From an uncultured Pseudomonadota bacterium (GTDB lineage Bacteria; BMS3Abin14): DNA of 16,279 nt. The stretch covers positions 86,270 to 102,548 of the forward strand of contig CAYVSA010000001.1 in assembly GCA_964454175.1 (NCBI GenBank), written 5' to 3'. Shown here one piece after another: positions 3,816 through 11,452 of this stretch. The first letter of the stretch is position 1. The number at the start of each line of letters is the position of its first letter. The position numbers and the translations under genes are program-made. The notes below the pieces were generated by a model. That model worked only from the letters and a program-made list of their open reading frames with translations. It was not told where the DNA came from and searched no databases.

Positions 3816-4280
3816 ATGAATGCCAAAAGATCGGGATTTAAAGTTTTTTCCAATACTATCGACATCAGAACAGCCGGAGAACTGGACATGGTAGATATTT
3901 CATCCAATCTGGTTTCGGCAGTCAGTTCGGCAGGTGTCCTTCACGGTACCGTCCATGTTTTTGTTGCCGGATCGACGGCAGCCGTCACAACAATAGAATA
4001 CGAATCCGGCGCTATATCAGATCTCAAAGCCGCCATTGGGCGAATGGCCCCGGCTGAGATCCACTACGCGCATGATGCCAGGTGGGGCGACGGCAATGGG
4101 AGATCACATGTTCGGGCGGCAATAATCGGGCCTTCTCTCTGCGTACCGGTCAGGAATGGGGCCCCCCTGCTGGGGACGTGGCAGCAGGTGATCATAGTTG
4201 AGCTGGATATCCGTGCAAGGGACCGGAAAGTCCACGTTACAGTTTCAGGGTCATCCGGGGCCGGTGGAGGTGATGTTTGA
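3816..4280 (+). CDS. yjbQ: YjbQ/UPF0047 family protein (secondary thiamine-phosphate synthase family)
   Basis: Motifs GSTAAVTTIEYESG, HDARWGDGNGRSHVRAAIIGPS and LGTWQQVIIVELD. Confidence 0.88.
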   Translation: MNAKRSGFKVFSNTIDIRTAGELDMVDISSNLVSAVSSAGVLHGTVHVFVAGSTAAVTTIEYESGAISDLKAAIGRMAPAEIHYAHDARWGDGNGRSHVRAAIIGPSLCVPVRNGAPLLGTWQQVIIVELDIRARDRKVHVTVSGSSGAGGGDV

Positions 4281-4729
4281 AGTTTTTCAAGTCTGATGAA
4301 CTACTCGAGATCCTCAGCTTTGCATCCGAAAGTGAGACCCAGACCGCGGGCGGCAGGCTGGTATTTACGCTCATGCAGGTAGAACAGATTTCCGGGGAGG
4401 GGGTCCTTGCCGCAACACCTGATGGTTCTACCGAGGCCAGACGAGTCAAGAGGCCTGCAAAGGGAGTAATTGATGGGGACAGGGCCTGGTGGGACCTTTC
4501 CAATGGCTGCTATCTGGCCACCTTCAATGAGCGAATACTGGTGCCGGCAGACGGGGTCCTTGTGGTCCAGCCGCACCCCGAAGCCATGAAGAACGGCCTC
4601 TGGCACCCCACGCTTTTTGTCAGAGAATGGGAAAGAGACACGGCGTCTATCCTCATGGTCATTTCCGCGAGGGGACTCAAGATCCAGGAAAACGCTCCGG
4701 TTTCGGTGGGGTTCCTGATCTCCGGATGA
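4277..4729 (+). CDS. dCTP deaminase/dUTPase-fold protein, degenerate active-site motifs
   Basis: TTG start overlaps the yjbQ stop (TTGA), with GGAGG SD. 'ETQ...L.FTL..V', 'WWDLSNGCYLATFNE.I.VP', 'NGLWHPTL' and 'GLKIQENAPVS' resemble short trimeric dUTPase-like proteins. Confidence 0.65.
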   Translation: MKFFKSDELLEILSFASESETQTAGGRLVFTLMQVEQISGEGVLAATPDGSTEARRVKRPAKGVIDGDRAWWDLSNGCYLATFNERILVPADGVLVVQPHPEAMKNGLWHPTLFVREWERDTASILMVISARGLKIQENAPVSVGFLISG

Positions 4730-4746
4730 GTCTGCCCGGTGGCACT

Positions 4747-4762
4747 CTCAATGTACATTGAG
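4747..4762. promoter_or_regulatory. perfect 16-bp palindrome, candidate transcription-factor site
   Basis: CTCAATGTACATTGAG is its own reverse complement and ends 1 bp before the TTGACA at 4764. Confidence 0.45.
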
Positions 4763-4763
4763 C

Positions 4764-4793
4764 TTGACAGGCCGGTCCATATCTGATAGCCCT
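4764..4793 (+). promoter_or_regulatory. probable trp operon promoter
   Basis: Consensus TTGACA at 4764-4769. At 17-nt spacing there is TGa-TAGCCC (weak -10 with extended TG), just upstream of the leader ORF. Confidence 0.45.
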
Positions 4794-4801
4794 TACCGAT
4801 C

Positions 4802-4882
4802 ATGTTGACTGGATATTTTACATCTACATCATTTTCCAGCTGGTGGTGGACCGTGTCTGCAGGGGAGGTTCCGAGCCGCTGA
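4802..4882 (+). CDS. trpL: trp operon leader peptide MLTGYFTSTSFSSWWWTVSAGEVPSR
   Basis: ATG at 4802, TGGTGGTGG at 4841-4849, TGA at 4880-4882. Lies directly upstream of terminator hairpins and trpE. Confidence 0.88.
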   Translation: MLTGYFTSTSFSSWWWTVSAGEVPSR

Positions 4883-4910
4883 TCCGGTGAGTGAAAGTTG
4901 AGGATTTTTG

Positions 4911-4941
4911 GCCGCGTGTCTCCCAGGACCCGCGGTTTTTT
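4911..4941 (+). terminator. attenuator terminator T1
   Basis: GCCGCGTGTCT-ccca-GGACCCGCGGT (one mismatch), running into TTTTTT at 4936-4941. Confidence 0.75.
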
Positions 4942-4945
4942 CATT

Positions 4946-4979
4946 TAAGGGCTGCGGCAATAGCAGCCCTTATTTTTTT
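4946..4979 (+). terminator. attenuator terminator T2
   Basis: Perfect 10-bp stem TAAGGGCTGC (4946-4955)/GCAGCCCTTA (4963-4972) plus T7 (4973-4979), immediately before the trpE SD GGAGG (4980-4984). Confidence 0.85.
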
Positions 4980-4990
4980 GGAGGATCAAT

Positions 4991-6430
4991 ATGGAAACTG
5001 CTGTAAAAAACATCGTCCCGAAGCTGTCCCTCAGATGTGCTTTTCGGGATCTTGCGTACGAGCTGGGGGAGATGCCGGAAATGGATGCTGCCCTGGCTCC
5101 CATGGATCCCATAGGTTTTCTCGAGAGCAGGGAGGGGACGGAGAAGTGGGCAAGATACGGCATTACAGCGGCTCGTCCGATAATGCACGTCAGCGGCAGG
5201 CGCAACAGATTCACGCTCAGGGGGCCCGACGGCAGCCTGGTCGAAGGGGAAGCAACAGACCCGCTGGACCTGTTAAGAAGTATCGAACCTGCCGGGACCA
5301 TCCCCGAGGGGGTTGACGGCTTCAGGTACGTTGGGGGGTGGATCGGTTCCCTTGGCTATGAAAGTTCGGGGCTTTTCGATGGTATAGCACCGGCACGAGC
5401 CGACGATATCGATCTTCCTGATTACGCTTTCTTCCTGCCCTCGGTCCTGGTGCTAAAGGATGCTGTCGCCAGGCGGTTAACCCTCGTGGCGTGGGAGGTC
5501 AAGGGAGACAAAAAAGCCGAGACGATCCTTGACGAAGCAGAGAAGTGCCTGCAAAGTGCTGCGGACAGAGTGCCTCCGAAAAACGATGGGTCCAATCGGG
5601 AGGCAGTGACCACTTTTGGCGAAGAAGAGTTTCTCAAGGCTGTTGTAGACTCCAAAAAACTCATCCACGACGGAGAGTTGATACAGGTCGTAGTCTCACG
5701 CCGATGGGAGGTCGTGCCGTCACCGCCTCCCGAGGTCGTTTACAATGCCCTGTCGCAGTTGAATCCTTCACCGTACCATTTCTACCTTCGGCTGCCGGGC
5801 GGGGTGCTCCTGGGAGCATCTCCCGAGCTTCTTGTACGCAAAGACGAGAACTACCTCACCGTAAGACCCATCGCCGGGACGCGGCGGAGGGGCAGGGACG
5901 AGACCCAGGACCTTGAGAATGCGGCGGACATGCTGGCCGATCCAAAAGAACGCGCCGAGCACATAATGCTGGTGGATCTGGGACGCAATGACCTTGGCAG
6001 GGTTTCAGAACCTGGGACGGTGAAGGTCTCAAGACGTATGGAAGTCGAGTATTATTCCCATGTCATGCATCTCGTCTCGGAAGTTCAGTCGAGGATCGCA
6101 CAGGGAGCCGACGCTTACGATGTACTCAGGGCATCCTTCCCGGCCGGGACAGTATCCGGTGCCCCGAAGATCAGGGCGATGCAGGCTATATCAGAACTTG
6201 AGCCCGTGGTGAGAGGACCTTATGCCGGTGGCGTGGGCTATTTCGATCTCAGGGGCAATATGGATTTCTGCATCACCATACGATCGGTCTTTTACTCAGG
6301 AGACAGGGCCTTCGTACAGGCAGGGGCCGGTATTGTCGCAGATTCCGTTCCGGAAAAAGAGAGTGACGAGATAGAGGCTAAAGCTACCGCGATGCTAAAG
6401 GCGTTCGGTTCCGTCAGGGGGAGGGGGTAA
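4991..6430 (+). CDS. trpE: anthranilate synthase component I
   Basis: FLES, NPSPY, GASPELLV, RPIAGTRRRG, KERAEHIMLVDLGRNDLGRV, FPAGTVSGAPKIRAM and QAGAGIVADS. First gene of the trp cluster. Confidence 0.93.
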   Translation: METAVKNIVPKLSLRCAFRDLAYELGEMPEMDAALAPMDPIGFLESREGTEKWARYGITAARPIMHVSGRRNRFTLRGPDGSLVEGEATDPLDLLRSIEPAGTIPEGVDGFRYVGGWIGSLGYESSGLFDGIAPARADDIDLPDYAFFLPSVLVLKDAVARRLTLVAWEVKGDKKAETILDEAEKCLQSAADRVPPKNDGSNREAVTTFGEEEFLKAVVDSKKLIHDGELIQVVVSRRWEVVPSPPPEVVYNALSQLNPSPYHFYLRLPGGVLLGASPELLVRKDENYLTVRPIAGTRRRGRDETQDLENAADMLADPKERAEHIMLVDLGRNDLGRVSEPGTVKVSRRMEVEYYSHVMHLVSEVQSRIAQGADAYDVLRASFPAGTVSGAPKIRAMQAISELEPVVRGPYAGGVGYFDLRGNMDFCITIRSVFYSGDRAFVQAGAGIVADSVPEKESDEIEAKATAMLKAFGSVRGRG

Positions 6431-6431
6431 A

Positions 6432-7019
6432 ATGGTTCTTATTATCGATAACTATGACTCATTCACTTACAATATCTACCAGGCCATGAGCACAATGACC
6501 GATGAGGTGAGAGTTGTACGCAACGACGAAATCTCACTGGACGAACTGGATGAACCGTGCATCACGCACCTGGTCGTATCTCCGGGCCCCGGCAGGCCGA
6601 GTGGAGCGGGCGTGAGCAAGGAGGCCATCGGTAAAATAGCCGGGCGCATACCGGTGCTTGGGGTTTGTCTCGGGCACCAGGCTATAGGTGAAGTCTACGG
6701 CTGCGATGTGATAAATGCCGGCAGGCTCATGCACGGTAAATCATCAGAGGTGAGGCACAGCGGGGACGGACTCTACCTGGGTCTGCCGGTTCCCTTCGAG
6801 GCGATTCGGTATCATTCACTGAGCCTGGACAGGAGCACCATACCGTCCGAACTGGAGATCACCGCTGAAGCAGACGATGGGGAGATCATGGGTGTACGGC
6901 ACAGGACAATGCTTGTGGAAGGTGTTCAGTTCCACCCTGAATCATTCGGAACTATCGAGGGGAATAAAATATTTGAGAATTTTCTCGCACAAGAAGGAGG
7001 AATGCGAAATGATGCGTGA
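6432..7019 (+). CDS. trpG: anthranilate synthase component II (glutamine amidotransferase)
   Basis: IDNYDSFTYN, SPGPG, GVCLGHQ, RYHSL and GVQFHPES. Confidence 0.93.
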   Translation: MVLIIDNYDSFTYNIYQAMSTMTDEVRVVRNDEISLDELDEPCITHLVVSPGPGRPSGAGVSKEAIGKIAGRIPVLGVCLGHQAIGEVYGCDVINAGRLMHGKSSEVRHSGDGLYLGLPVPFEAIRYHSLSLDRSTIPSELEITAEADDGEIMGVRHRTMLVEGVQFHPESFGTIEGNKIFENFLAQEGGMRNDA

Positions 7020-8031
7020 ACTGCTGGCCAAAGTGGTTGACGGGAACGACCTGGACTTCGGGGATGTGAACGATGCCGTTGGGAGCATTGTTGAGGAAAA
7101 AGCGACTCCCTCACAAGTGGGTGCTTTCCTGACGGCACTGAGGATGAAGGGGGAGACGGACGAAGAAATAGCAGGGGCAGCAGCAGCATTGAGAAGCCGG
7201 ACGATCCCATTTCCGGCTGCCGGAGCATATGATGCCATAGACACCTGCGGCACGGGAGGGGATGGTGCAGGGACGGTCAATGTTTCCACACTGTCGGCCC
7301 TTGTTGCAGCCGGGGCCGGGGTGAAGGTGGCCAAGCACGGGAACCGGGCCGTTTCCAGCAAGTGCGGCAGCGCTGACCTTCTCGCGTCCCTTGGGATAAA
7401 GGTAGATGTCTCTCCTCAAGAGGCGGCAAACTGCCTGGAAGAGGCCAACTTCTGCTTTCTTTTCGCGCCGCTTTACCACCCTGCCATGAAAGCCGTGGCG
7501 CCTTTCAGGGGGGAGCTTGGATTCAGGACACTATTTAACATGATAGGCCCGTTGTGCAATCCTGCCGGGGTCAGGAGGCAGCTTCTTGGGGTTTTTTCTC
7601 CAGACCTGCTGCCCCTGATGGCGGACGTTCTGGGGCGGCTGGGATGCGACCGTGCGATGATCGTGTCTTCCGAAGACGGCCTCGATGAGCTTTCGATTAG
7701 TGCGCCCACATCCGTAGCGGAGATAGACGGGAACGGGAAGGTGAATTTCTATACACTGGATCCTGCATCCCTCGGGTTTGCTCCCTATGAGGCGGGAGCG
7801 CTTTCGGGCGGAACTCCCGAGGAAAACGCGCAGGTTTCCATGGAGTTTCTCAAGGGAGCGGCAGGACCGGTCAGGGATGCAGTATTATTAAATGCGGCGG
7901 CGGCTATCATGATCTCAGATGGTGGCGCAGACATGAAAGAGGGACTTGCAGCAGCTCAAAAGTCCGTGGATTCAGGCGCGTCACTTGAGGTCCTTGAAAA
8001 AGTGAAGGCCATATCCGGGGGAGGGGCCTGA
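7009..8031 (+). CDS. trpD: anthranilate phosphoribosyltransferase
   Basis: DTCGTGGDG, KHGNRAVSSKCGSAD, HPAMKAVAP.R.ELG.RT.FN and DGLDELS. Start moved from 6877 to ATG 7009 (AGGAGG at 6995-7000). ATG 7012 is also possible. Confidence 0.93.
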   Translation: MMRELLAKVVDGNDLDFGDVNDAVGSIVEEKATPSQVGAFLTALRMKGETDEEIAGAAAALRSRTIPFPAAGAYDAIDTCGTGGDGAGTVNVSTLSALVAAGAGVKVAKHGNRAVSSKCGSADLLASLGIKVDVSPQEAANCLEEANFCFLFAPLYHPAMKAVAPFRGELGFRTLFNMIGPLCNPAGVRRQLLGVFSPDLLPLMADVLGRLGCDRAMIVSSEDGLDELSISAPTSVAEIDGNGKVNFYTLDPASLGFAPYEAGALSGGTPEENAQVSMEFLKGAAGPVRDAVLLNAAAAIMISDGGADMKEGLAAAQKSVDSGASLEVLEKVKAISGGGA

Positions 8032-8810
8032 TGAGCGGCGGGTTCCTGCTTCGGGCTGCCGAGTCGGCAGCATCGAACGTGACAGCCTGGAAGGAGAGAT
8101 TCGGGTCCAACGCAGGTCTGATGGGAGCATCTGGAGCGCAGTTTCTGCCGGACGTCATCGGAACGTGCGGGGTGATCGCTGAAATTAAGTTGAAGAGCCC
8201 CTCGGCCGGGGACCTGATGGGCAATACTGATCCCGTAAAACTTCTTCGAGAATACGAGGCAGGCGGGGCCGAGGCCCTCAGCGTGGTAGTGGAAGAAAAG
8301 TTCTTCGGTGGCTCTCCGGAGCTTTTCATGGAGATAGCGCAAAATACCGTCAGGCCGGTGTTGTGGAAGGATTTCGTCGTGGATGAGTTTCAGATCGAAC
8401 TGGCCGCGCGGCTGGGAGCTTCTTCGATACTGCTTATAGAGGCCCTGCTGGCTGGCAGCAGCCTGGCGCTGATGATCGAAAAGTGCAGGGTTAAAGGATT
8501 AAGGCCCCTCGTTGAAGTGCGCGATGAAAAATCCCTGTCGAGGGCGATTGGATCCGGTGCCGACCTTGTTGGAGTTAACAACAGGAACCTGGAAACTCTC
8601 GAGGTGGATCTGGAAACCAGCGAAAAGCTTGCTGGAAGTATTGGCCGTAATATTGCGGGCGTTGCCGAGAGCGGCATCAAGGGCCCCGGCGATGTTGAGC
8701 GTATGGCAAAGTCAGGATACAGGGCCGTGCTGGTAGGACAGGCGCTGGTTTCCAGTGACTATCCCCGCAACGATCTTCGGGCAATGGTAGATGCGGGGAG
8801 GATGAGATGA
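8031..8810 (+). CDS. trpC: indole-3-glycerol phosphate synthase
   Basis: IAEIKLKSPSAG, ALSVVVEEKFFGGS, PVLWKDF, GVNNRNL and AESGI. Confidence 0.92.
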   Translation: MSGGFLLRAAESAASNVTAWKERFGSNAGLMGASGAQFLPDVIGTCGVIAEIKLKSPSAGDLMGNTDPVKLLREYEAGGAEALSVVVEEKFFGGSPELFMEIAQNTVRPVLWKDFVVDEFQIELAARLGASSILLIEALLAGSSLALMIEKCRVKGLRPLVEVRDEKSLSRAIGSGADLVGVNNRNLETLEVDLETSEKLAGSIGRNIAGVAESGIKGPGDVERMAKSGYRAVLVGQALVSSDYPRNDLRAMVDAGRMR

Positions 8811-9466
8811 CAAACGGTTCCCTGAAAATCAAGATATGCGGACTGACGAGACGGGAGGACGCACTGGCTGCTTCTGCGGCGGGGGCTGACATCCTCGGGT
8901 TCAACCTTGTTCCGGGCAGCAGGAGATACCTGAATCCCTACGCGGCCCAGGACATAATTTCTGCATTGCCTCCTTTCGTTGGCAAAGTTGGTATCTTCGC
9001 CAACGAAGACGTCGACATCGTCAACGATCTGGCAGAGTTTCTGGGCCTGGATGCCGTGCAGCTGCACGGCAGCGAGGACGGCCGGTTCTGTTCGAAGATA
9101 GACCGGCCGGTCATAAAGGCCCTGCGCATTGGGGCTGCAGACGACCTCGCGGGGATTTCGGAGTACGATGTCTCAGCGTTCCTCCTGGATACCAGAGTGG
9201 AGGACGCACTGGGCGGGACGGGTAGGACCTTCGACTGGAATATCGCAGTGCAGTTCGTAAGAGAAAACAGGGTCTTTGTTGCCGGAGGACTGACACCGGA
9301 TAACGTCGCTGAGGCAGTCAGGATACTTTCGCCTTACGGTGTAGACACGGCTTCCGGGGTAGAATCGGAGCCGGCGGTCAAGGACCATGAACTTATAAAG
9401 GATTTTGTGAGGGCAGCCAGGTGTGCAGCTGCTGGAAATGGAGGAAGCAGTGACATCGCCTGTTAA
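8807..9466 (+). CDS. trpF: phosphoribosylanthranilate isomerase
   Basis: [33 protein letters not shown] and GVDTASGVE. Confidence 0.94.
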
Positions 9467-10640
9467 CATACCGGATGCCAGGGGGTTTTTCGGGGATTTC
9501 GGAGGCCGTTTCGTTCCGGAGGTTCTTATGCCGGCATTGACGGAACTGGAAGATGCCTTCCTGAAGGCTCTTGCAGATGAGGATTTCAACTCTGAATTAG
9601 CCCTTGTCCTGAAGGACTACTCGGGCCGGCCGACCCCCCTCACGGAAGCAAGGCGATTTGCCGGATCGGGAAAGCTGTTCAGGCTGGAGATGAAGAGGGA
9701 GGATCTTAACCACACTGGCGCCCACAAGATCAACAATACCCTGGGGCAGGTCATCCTGGCCGTCAGGATGGGCAAGAAAAGGATAATTGCAGAGACCGGG
9801 GCAGGTCAGCACGGGGTCGCCACAGCAACTGCAGCAGCACTTTACGGTCTGCCGTGTGCTGTCTACATGGGCGTCGAGGACATCGCTCGTCAGGCCCCCA
9901 ATGTGGAGAGGATGAAACTGCTGGGTGCGGAAGTGATCCCGGTTGAGGATGGGGCCGGCACCCTTAAGGATGCTGTCAATGAAGCCATGCGGGACTGGGT
10001 TCGCAACGTTTCAGATACCTTCTACATATTGGGTTCTGCAGTTGGTCCCCACCCCTATCCCGTGATGGTGAGGCATTTCCAGTCGGTGATCGGGGAAGAG
10101 GCCAAAATACAGTTTCTGGACCGTCACGGCCGGCTGCCGGACGTTGTAGTTGCATGTGTGGGGGGCGGCAGCAATGCCGCTGGGACTTTCTATCCCTTCA
10201 GGGATGATCCGGTCAGGCTCGTTGGTGTGGAAGCAGGCGGCACAGGGGACGGGGCCGGGCAGCACGGCGCCTCCCTCGGGCTCGGGGAGCCAGGGATCTT
10301 CCACGGCAGCCTGAGCTACGTTCTTCAGGACGGTGACGGCCAGATAGTTACGGCCCATTCAGTATCCGCCGGTCTTGACTATCCAGGGGTGGGACCTGAA
10401 CATAGCAGCTGGCTGACTTCCAGGCGGGTCGAATATCACAGGGTAACCGACTCTGCTGCCCTGGAGGTGACAAATACTTTTACGAAAGACGAGGGAATAC
10501 TGCCTGCGCTTGAAACGGCCCACGCCCTTGCCTGGATCGAGCAAAGCAAGGAAGAGCTGGAGGGCATGAATATACTGGTGTGTCTTTCCGGACGAGGGGA
10601 TAAGGACATGGATACACTCATGACGGGAGGTGCATCGTGA
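9450..10640 (+). CDS. trpB: tryptophan synthase beta chain
   Basis: [28 protein letters not shown] (PLP lysine), [30 protein letters not shown] and LSGRGDKD. Likely start is GTG 9450 after GGAGG at 9440-9444. Confidence 0.95.
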
Positions 10641-11452
10641 GCCGGTTTGACGATGTTTTCAAGCCATCGAGAAAAGCCCTCGCCGTGTTCCTGACGGCCG
10701 GCTTTCCTGAGCCGGGCCTGGACGAAGAGCTGGCCCTTGCTGTCCTGGAAGCGGGAGCGGACATCCTGGAGATAGGCTTTCCCTTCTCAGATCCCCTGGC
10801 CGACGGCCCACTGATCCAGCAGGCTTCGAAGATCTCCCTGAAAAACGGCACCACCCTGGACAGCTCCATTGCCCTTGCTGGCAGGATCAGGGAACAGAGC
10901 GAGGCCCCCCTTGTATTAATGGGCTACGCAAACCCTGTTTTTCACATGGGTTACTCTGTGTTTGCCGGGCAGGTTGCCGATGAGGGGGTTGACGGTATCA
11001 TAGTTGCCGATCTGCCTGTGGATGAGTCGGGGCCCCTCAGAGATGAGCTGAAGGATAAAAGTGTGTCCCTGATACCCATGGCGGCCCCCAACACATCGCC
11101 CGTGCGTCTGGGCGAAATAATCGCGGCAGGGGACGGGTTTCTCTACATCGTTTCCATGACGGGCCTTACCGGGGACGCTTTTGAATCCCAGGCTCCATGG
11201 CAGGAGGTTGCACGGCAGGCCGCGAAGAACGGTTCTCTCCCCGTGTGCGTGGGGTTCGGGATCGGGAGCGGCGATGATGCAGTACGTGCAGCCAAGACTA
11301 CAGATGGAGTGATCGTGGGAAGCGCAGTAACCGGCAGGGTGTTTACGGGCCTCGAAGACGGTTGGGGTGCGGCGATTTCCGGTGCCTGTGACCTCGTTCG
11401 GGAACTGGCATCAGCCCTTGAAATGGAGTATCATTCTAAAGATAAAGCCTGA
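10637..11452 (+). CDS. trpA: tryptophan synthase alpha chain
   Basis: [42 protein letters not shown] and [12 protein letters not shown] overlap with trpB. Confidence 0.95.

Follow-up and report, generated by a model that had tools for sequence, protein, structure and literature searches.

The classical enteric trp attenuator consists of the leader ORF trpL, four pairing segments and one terminator, and leader-peptide attenuation of this general kind has been described chiefly in proteobacteria, together with a few further groups. The his leader of Salmonella and E. coli is built from six segments that pair either as A:B, C:D and E:F or as B:C and D:E, with the last hairpin alone acting as a terminator. 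In the mgtCBR leader, tandem attenuators are combined with two ORFs. The first-pass annotation of the DNA analysed here had equated classical attenuation with four segments and one terminator, which is too narrow a description already because of the six segments of the his leader.

It is also too narrow with respect to terminators, given that the erm(K) attenuator of Bacillus licheniformis is described as having two adjacent ones (PMC4335068). For the Bc1 c-di-GMP-I riboswitch of the Bacillus cereus group, the published report places two terminators 28 bp apart and states that the second stays folded when the first opens, which masks the regulation of the first (PMC11218506). The rimP-leader of certain Gammaproteobacteria is described as carrying a second terminator in tandem, located upstream and provided with its own antiterminator (PMC2965389). 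Thus, the arrangement considered below does not represent a new principle, since all its components are known and both six-segment cascades and tandem terminators have precedents. No leader-peptide attenuator in which two terminators are linked was found in the literature searched, which leaves most subscription journals outside its range.

Here we describe a candidate for such an attenuator ahead of trpE in an uncultured candidate phylum. It was recognized in a 16,279-nucleotide stretch of DNA, which we refer to in full as the window. Our preferred reading is that the leader is a ribosome-mediated trp attenuator whose two consecutive terminators, T1 and T2, operate as a relay through a strand that they share, and we assign this reading a probability of roughly 0.55. 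As in the enteric trp attenuator, there are consecutive Trp codons in a short ORF, the alternative helices 1:2, 2:3 and 3:4, and an intrinsic terminator before trpE. The differences are a second complete terminator only 4-5 nt farther on, the sharing of a strand through helix 4:5, a run of three Trp codons, the lack of a match to any Rfam leader family, and a leader ORF apparently devoid of a Shine-Dalgarno sequence.

With the his leader, the element shares three hairpins (1:2, 3:4 and 5:6) and two bridging alternatives (2:3 and 4:5), such that his helix D:E is the counterpart of 4:5. Unlike in his, the middle hairpin (T1) itself has the form of a terminator with a U-tract in 21 of 21 complete leaders, which would create two decision points. 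Both erm(K) and the present element place two adjacent intrinsic terminators after one leader peptide, although erm(K) senses a drug-bound ribosome and controls a resistance gene, whereas the present element would sense stalling at Trp codons and has trpEGD downstream. The Bc1 riboswitch likewise has one sensor followed by two closely spaced intrinsic terminators. Its sensor is an aptamer, however, and in the present leader a conserved helix links the terminators, so that the opening of T1 should also open T2. The mgtCBR leader and the rimP-leader provide a separate sensor or antiterminator for each stop. In contrast, a single sensor precedes both stops here and there is no room for a second.

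Architecture of the trp leader

The trp operon lies on the + strand of the window, where the ORF lists give trpE at 4991-6430, trpG at 6432-7019, trpD, and further ORFs to 11452. We read this regulated operon (4991..11452), which was delimited from the ORF lists and TrpE similarity, as a probable trpEGDCFBA, the downstream genes being named solely from their order and size. TrpE matches its relatives with E values down to 1e-250, and a single trpE was found (one match in the source genome). A Shine-Dalgarno sequence, GGAGG at 4980-4984, and the trpE start codon at 4991-4993 can be read directly from the + strand (4980..4993). The GGAGG abuts the end of T2, which leaves T2 only 12 nt ahead of trpE.

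The leader ORF, trpL (4802..4882, + strand; MLTGYFTSTSFSSWWWTVSAGEVPSR), was taken from the ORF list. It has 26 codons, ends at the UGA at 4880-4882 and is located 190 nt ahead of trpE. Its three consecutive Trp codons (WWW, 4841..4849, + strand) would act as the sensor and also as segment 1. Of 13 family loci, 12 have a short ORF with WWW at the equivalent position, and L002 has W-R-W instead. No Shine-Dalgarno sequence is visible for trpL, whose start lies approximately 10 nt past the -10 box. A search for a second short ORF with a codon run found none, and the trp leader seems to be the sole attenuator of the leader-peptide kind in the phylum.

A putative leader promoter (4764..4792, + strand) is formed by a -35 element, TTGACA at 4764-4769, together with a -10 element that could be either GATAGC (4785-4790) or TAGCCC (4787-4792). 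A promoter scanner did not call this site and gave a different, weak one at 4805-4832. A TTGAC(A/T) element and a TCTG(N)TA(R) box hold the same position across 12 related loci, and we infer that transcription probably begins from the 4764..4792 promoter.

The classical portion of the attenuator, namely the leader ORF with WWW and helices 1:2, 2:3 and 3:4, was recovered by inspection of the sequence, by folding with the ribosome footprint masked, and by RNAalifold. Across 14 leaders, RNAalifold pairs alignment columns 7-14 with 40-47, which in the window corresponds to 1:2 pairing between 4841-4847 and 4875-4881. The masked folds yield an antiterminator whose 5' strand is segment 2 (4863..4885, + strand) and whose 3' strand is segment 3 (4902..4924, + strand). 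Segment 3 overlaps the 5' arm of T1 (4911-4921), which is thereby taken up. With WWW masked by the ribosome, the lowest-energy structure is 2:3 for a transcript ending at 4941 and 2:3 together with 4:5 for one ending at 4962. When the ribosome is placed at the stop codon, T1 forms.

Only part of the 2:3 pairing originally drawn appears in these folds. The interaction of GGGAGGU (4863-4869) with GUCUCCC (4918-4924) is retained at -8.6 kcal/mol, but the CGGU/GCCG pairing (-3.6 kcal/mol) is unused, and the antiterminator is longer than had been drawn. Its second half instead consists of 4872-4878 with 4909-4914 and 4881-4885 with 4902-4906. The competing pairing of 4873-4879 with 4932-4938, which had been pointed out at the same time, does exist, with an energy of -8.9 kcal/mol. 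Among the 14 leaders, 92.1% of 140 cells in the 2:3 core pair, versus 36-69% when the partners are slid, and compensatory changes are absent.

The geometry of the leader fits the textbook model when a ribosome footprint of the generally known size is used. Specifically, the last Trp codon (4847-4849) lies 16 nt ahead of segment 2 and the stop codon (4880-4882) lies within it, such that segment 2 would be left free during a stall at WWW and covered once the ribosome reaches the stop. Rfam returned no family at gathering score in the window. Even with E values up to 10, a search of 4740-5000 returned no leader, T-box or riboswitch family and only chance-level matches to unrelated sRNAs. The element appears to work like a trp attenuator, yet it belongs to no curated RNA family.

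T1 (helix 3:4; 4911..4941, + strand), as determined from the sequence and by folding, has a 10-bp stem interrupted by one 1x1 mismatch, a CCCA loop and a U6 tract (4936-4941). Its outer pairs are G4911-U4936, C4912-G4935, C4913-G4934, G4914-C4933, C4915-G4932 and G4916-C4931, followed by the mismatch U4917xC4930 and the inner pairs from G4918-C4929 to U4921-G4926. The folding energy is -14.9 to -15.2 kcal/mol, and T1 is weaker in the window than in any other leader (-14.9 versus -18.7 to -27.9 kcal/mol elsewhere). T2 (helix 5:6; 4946..4979, + strand) was identified from the sequence, by a terminator scanner and by folding. Its 10-bp stem joins 4946-4955 to 4963-4972 (U4946-A4972 to C4955-G4963) around the loop GGCAAUA, has an energy of -17.7 to -18.5 kcal/mol and is followed by U7 at 4973-4979.

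By all sequence criteria (10 bp, -18 kcal/mol, U7), T2 in the window should be a strong intrinsic terminator. The consensus terminator scanner picked up T2 but not T1, owing to the mismatch inside the T1 stem. Two complete intrinsic terminators in tandem had been claimed for this leader, and this description holds for both T1 (-15 kcal/mol with U6) and T2 (-18 kcal/mol with U7). We infer that both hairpins terminate transcription in the source organism. From the end of the T1 U-tract to T2 there are 4-5 nt, and a single leader ORF lies upstream of both terminators.

Occurrence of the leader and of its second hairpin

Our phylum sample comprises 16 genomes, all of one family, and a phylum-wide search added no others. 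The leader with T1 is present in 13 of the 16, which is every genome that has an assembled trpE upstream region. Among the three genomes lacking a leader match, G008 has trpE at a contig end (L003), and the others are 71% and 78% complete. A metagenome scan contributed nine further leaders, all nine of them true. The diversity of segment 2 is biased in these metagenome leaders because the scan pattern, which was built from the Trp codons and segment 2, fixed that segment. A separate scan of genome contigs with TGGTGGTGGN{8,25}GGGGRGN{30,60}CCGCGKGT gave at least 119 matches, most of which are chance occurrences in GC-rich genomes. Among the 119 matches listed, filtering for T1 keeps one true leader, L123, which is the same DNA as L006.

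The total is 22 leaders, and T1 with its U-tract is found in 21 of these, the 22nd (L165) ending inside T1. In the T1 alignment, 95.8% of 168 cells pair and two pairs have compensatory changes. Inspection of 16 trpE loci from other phyla (L014 and L016-L030) revealed neither a Trp-rich leader followed by a terminator nor the tandem design. The leader is probably phylum-wide, as judged from the genomes of the one family sampled.

A GC-rich second hairpin homologous to T2, which we call hairpin 2, begins 0-8 nt past the T1 U-tract in 14 of the 21 complete leaders (L001, L002, L171, L004, L007, L005, L006, L012, L013, L163, L166, L015, L164 and L167). No homologous hairpin exists in the other seven, where the equivalent position has either no hairpin (L008, L169, L011 and L168) or a weak or unrelated one (L009, L010 and L170). 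Where hairpin 2 is present, 90 of 98 cells pair and compensatory changes affect four pairs (eight cells), which is the strongest covariation of all the helices.

A U-rich tail follows this hairpin in most but not all cases. Eight of the 14 leaders have at least six U residues in the next 8 nt, and L004, whose tail is AUUUUUAUA when the bases absorbed into the called stem are counted, brings the total to nine. The tail is missing from the remaining five (L006, L015, L163, L164 and L167), and all five keep 4:5. Each of the five genera having hairpin 2 includes at least one species with a U-rich tail, and hairpin 2 may therefore be an ancestral terminator whose tail was later lost in some lineages.

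Pairing between the two terminators

The helix proposed as the antiterminator of T2 is 4:5 (4930..4957, + strand), which we evaluated by folding, shuffling and alignment. It joins 4930-4940, comprising the 3' arm and U-tract of T1, to 4947-4957, comprising the 5' arm of T2 and its first two loop nucleotides, G4956 and G4957, which are paired in 4:5 alone. Direct reading and folding both bear out the 11 contiguous pairs (5 GC, 4 GU and 2 AU) and 6-nt loop originally claimed, with an energy of -13.1 to -13.8 kcal/mol. When segment 5 of the window was shuffled 500 times, just 0.6% of the shuffled versions paired equally well with segment 4 (z = -3.0).

The same helix can form in all 14 leaders with hairpin 2, at -11.0 to -22.7 kcal/mol. 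The share of 500 segment-5 shuffles that fold as well is at most 1.6% in 12 of these leaders, and it is 3.8% and 6.8% in the other two. Helix 4:5 is at least as stable as 5:6 in L002, L171, L004, L005 and L007, and it is the more stable of the two in L167 and L163. Five leaders without a proper hairpin 2 give no 4:5 signal, a weak one in L170 excepted.

In the alignment of 4:5, 137 of 140 cells pair, as compared with 41-55% when the partners are slid by 1-3 columns, the 14 rows having been selected for possessing hairpin 2 and the helix having been drawn from these same, mutually related sequences. None of 500 column shuffles reached the observed pairing, whose percentage matches or exceeds those of T1 (95.8%) and 2:3 (92.1%). 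One pair of the helix, 101:129, which corresponds to C4931-G4956 in the window, has switched from C-G to U-A in both L005 and L167. The coordinated change is a triple one in L005, where the T1 partner, G4916 in the window, has become A. In L167, a neighbouring G-to-A change breaks one 4:5 pair, and three cells break overall. The covariation of 4:5 that had been suggested as a check is consequently found but thin: the pairing is nearly complete and one pair is compensated, but the compensation is confined to two sequences and there are the three broken cells.

These patterns must be weighed against the most serious alternative, which holds that T1 is the sole regulated stop and that hairpin 2 plays a conserved structural part in the trpE 5' UTR, for instance as a stabiliser or insulator. 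The U-rich tail would then be an AU-rich spacer before the Shine-Dalgarno sequence, and 4:5 would be a relic of related hairpins constructed around the palindrome CCGCGG. We regard this account as unlikely, although several observations agree with it. Had hairpin 2 originated by copying of T1, part of the 4:5 complementarity would survive passively, since each arm is constrained by the stem to which it belongs. The five tail-less hairpins conform to such a role, because they retain both the hairpin and 4:5, and the alternation between the two might for this reason serve a purpose other than termination. The fact that the strongest covariation is that of hairpin 2 itself also accords with a structural function. 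The spacing of the ribosome binding site agrees with it in most of the leaders that have a U-rich tail, where the Shine-Dalgarno sequence comes 1-8 nt after the tail (L001, L004, L012, L013 and L166), but this sequence is further away in L007, L005 and L002/L171.

The palindrome permits a more direct comparison. Because CCGCGG is palindromic, segment 5 could pair with segment 3 as well as with segment 4, and this rival 3:5 register pairs nearly as well as the 4:5 core (91.7% versus 96.4%), as would be expected of a shared palindrome. However, 7 of 84 cells break in 3:5 and 3 of 84 in the 4:5 core, there is no compensatory change in 3:5, and the two C-G to U-A changes noted above preserve 4:5 and break 3:5. 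Furthermore, in 12 of the 14 leaders, 2-6 nucleotides of the hairpin-2 loop lengthen 4:5 and add 4.5-9.5 kcal/mol. These first loop nucleotides (GG, CGG, CAG and similar) are free of the constraint of the 5:6 stem, yet they stay complementary to segment 4. This recruitment of loop nucleotides is the most telling indication that 4:5 is not coincidental. The strength of T2 in the window, as judged by the sequence criteria given above, also argues against a purely structural hairpin.

The proposed relay and its setting

The preferred reading, a relay from T1 to T2, would operate within one short transcript that has six pairing segments and codes for a leader peptide containing three Trp residues. 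If charged tRNA-Trp is abundant, the ribosome would reach the UGA at 4880 and cover segment 2. With segment 2 covered, 3:4 would fold into T1 and most polymerases would halt at 4941. In those transcripts that leak through, segment 4 would be locked in T1, so that 5:6 could fold into T2 and halt the polymerase near 4979. When the ribosome stalls at WWW, segment 2 would be free, 2:3 would form first, and T1 would be prevented. The unpaired segment 4, consisting of CCGCGG and the U-tract, would then capture the emerging segment 5 across the 6-nt loop. By the time segment 6 arrives, T2 would be without a free 5' arm and the polymerase would read into trpE.

If this mechanism is correct, a single sensing event would be passed through serial terminators with no second sensor. 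The basal leak would be approximately the product of the two read-through rates, and induced expression would pay no cost. Such a design would be of interest to research on attenuation kinetics and to those who build low-leak RNA switches, and its presence here would extend leader-peptide attenuation to a deep uncultured phylum. We regard the relay as favoured because a helix able to disarm T2 is conserved. It can also be argued from necessity, because a strong-looking T2 stands 12 nt ahead of the only trpE found in the genome. With only 4-5 nt between T1 and T2, any control of T2 must come from the upstream segments. The more general proposition, that the whole candidate phylum uses a natural two-stage relay in which the 3' arm and U-tract of T1 serve as the antiterminator of T2 under one sensor, strikes us as an even bet.

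The energetics place clear demands on this model. With the ribosome masked at WWW, T1 together with hairpin 2 is favoured at equilibrium over 2:3 together with 4:5 in 14 of 14 leaders, by 1.3-16.9 kcal/mol. The relay must therefore be kinetic, as is antitermination in classical attenuators, and the choice between the two states lies beyond the reach of equilibrium folding. Moreover, when the transcript stops short of segment 6, again with the ribosome masked, 4:5 is part of the lowest-energy structure in only 5 of the 14 leaders.

A direct-path findpath estimate for the window puts the barrier from 4:5 to T2 approximately 13.5 kcal/mol above 4:5, because T2 cannot nucleate until the GC-rich end of 4:5 has opened. 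On this estimate, 4:5, once formed, would be a deep kinetic trap against T2. A rough Arrhenius calculation indicates that its refolding into T2 would be far slower than the transit of the polymerase, which needs approximately one second for the 38 nt between the U-tracts. The question of whether 4:5 can compete with T2 thus has two answers, since the barrier suggests that it can, but T1 with T2 is the lower state at equilibrium in every leader. That 4:5 outruns 5:6 in time is what we would expect under the relay.

We also used a crude co-transcriptional heuristic, in which the chain is grown, helices are kept and refolding is permitted only under a barrier cut-off, with outcomes that depend on this cut-off. 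All four runs with the ribosome at the stop codon ended in T1 and T2. Without a ribosome, three of four runs ended in T1 and T2, and one had 2:3 with T2 formed. With a stalled ribosome, eight runs gave 2:3 with 4:5 and no T2 in three cases, T1 with T2 in three and another fold in two. All three stalled runs that avoided T1 formed every one of the 11 pairs of 4:5 and none of the 10 pairs of T2. These results are consistent with a relay without amounting to proof. The proposed check by masked and co-transcriptional folding had a mixed outcome, in that 2:3 and 4:5 are indeed predicted together in the transcript to 4962, but the relay emerged in only three of eight stalled runs.

The six-segment cascade as originally conceived therefore stands in part. 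Its segments are present, 4:5 can form in all 14 leaders with hairpin 2 and the barrier is high, but equilibrium folding, the three of eight stalled runs, the U-rich tail in 9 of 14 and the hairpin in 14 of 21 leaders do not bear it out uniformly. The relay reading is plausible but unproven.

The same calculations bear on a simpler possibility, that T2 is a constitutive and partial fail-safe that damps both states equally and receives no instruction from T1. T1 with T2 is the equilibrium state of 14 of 14 leaders even when the ribosome is stalled, T2 is formed at the end of three of eight stalled runs, and the Bc1 report offers a precedent in which the second terminator masks the regulation of the first (PMC11218506). 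Nevertheless, we judge this explanation improbable, because, during starvation, a strong stop placed 12 nt ahead of the single trpE found would choke an essential pathway, and because neither the conservation of 4:5 nor the 13.5 kcal/mol barrier between it and T2 would serve a purpose. Regulation of T2 by a separate trans factor (protein, small RNA or tRNA) rather than by segment 4 is highly improbable, as nothing positive speaks for it and it is opposed by the 4-5 nt available between the T1 U-tract and T2, by the Rfam results for the window and for 4740-5000, and by the lack of a second short ORF with a codon run.

It is important to note that tandem terminators are no habit of this genome. 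A survey of 727 kb on both strands gave 440 loosely called terminator-like sites, among which 10 pairs lie within 60 nt, about as many as chance would give. Of these tandem pairs, that of the trp leader is the cleanest, and it is among the closest, with a gap of 12 nt as compared with 11 for one loose pair. Two other interpretations of T2 were considered and rejected. It is not a repeated or mobile terminator, since the same 9-bp stem occurs only once more, at C2:31284, where it is an ordinary terminator, and there is no repeat family. Nor is it a bidirectional terminator serving a convergent gene, given that the neighbouring ORFs conserved between relatives are all on the + strand and that the - strand continues after T2 as AAAUGAAAAAA, which is not a U-tract. 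Finally, a search of sequencing runs listed no RNA run for the region and one DNA run, which matches with a share of 0.35 of the sampled words.

Relative strength and competing pairings of the two terminators

The first terminator hairpin of the window (T1, 4911-4941) is the weakest among the T1 hairpins of the 21 complete leaders compared, with a folding energy of -14.9 kcal/mol vs -18.7 to -27.9 kcal/mol for the others, and it carries both a 1x1 mismatch and a U-tract of only six residues. The second terminator (T2) of the window is strong. This species may depend on the second stop more than its relatives do.

Two further pairings involve the 3' portion of T1, including segment 4, the strand that is proposed to pair with segment 5 (4930-4940 with 4947-4957) as the antiterminator of T2. 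In full-length minimum-energy folds of the window leader, the stretch UUUUUCA (4937-4943), which forms the tail of the T1 U-tract, pairs weakly with UGGAGGA (4979-4985), which is the Shine-Dalgarno sequence of trpE, and this pairing encloses T2. It becomes impossible once the 4:5 helix has formed. We consider that this weak contact, as modelled in the window, could add a small translational layer of control. The second pairing involves CCGUGUC (4849-4855), located directly after the Trp codons, which in the window fold can pair with segment 4 (4931-4937) when no ribosome is present. In one run of a heuristic co-transcriptional folding simulation, whose outcome depends on the barrier cut-off, this stretch captured segment 4, and T2 therefore still formed even though T1 was absent. 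Through this pairing, T2 might remain functional on transcripts that are not being translated.

Start, Trp codons and C-terminus of the leader peptide

Upstream of the leader ORF lie a conserved TTGACA (4764-4769) and a conserved TCTG(N)TA(R) box, and the ATG (4802) follows the -10 region by only about 10 nt. No Shine-Dalgarno sequence for this ORF is visible between 4764 and 4804, and the arrangement of putative promoter boxes and ATG is common to 12 related loci. This layout suggests that the ORF is leaderless or almost so.

The Trp run reads TGG CGG TGG (W-R-W) at positions 1313-1321 of L002, a leader found in one related genome, and TGG TGG TGG in L171, an almost identical metagenome leader. 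The arginine codon reflects either a weakened sensor or a sequencing or assembly error. At its C-terminus, the leader peptide retains (A/V)GEGPxR across genera (4859-4882 in the window). Since the corresponding coding stretch overlaps RNA segment 2 (GCAGGGGAGGGUCCG), the conservation probably reflects selection on the RNA rather than on the peptide.

Genomic surroundings

When the whole genome was searched for short ORFs that contain a codon run and precede a terminator, no convincing leader for his, leu, thr, phe or ilv emerged, and the trp leader seems, on this basis, to be the sole attenuator of the leader-peptide type in the genome. The 9-bp stem of T2 (AAGGGCUGC/GCAGCCCUU) recurs in an ordinary terminator at position 31284 of contig C2; because this is the only other copy in the genome, a repeat family was rejected. 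Directly upstream of the putative leader promoter is a 150-aa ORF (4277-4729) that is conserved at the same position in several relatives, whose upstream stretches contain similar coding sequence.
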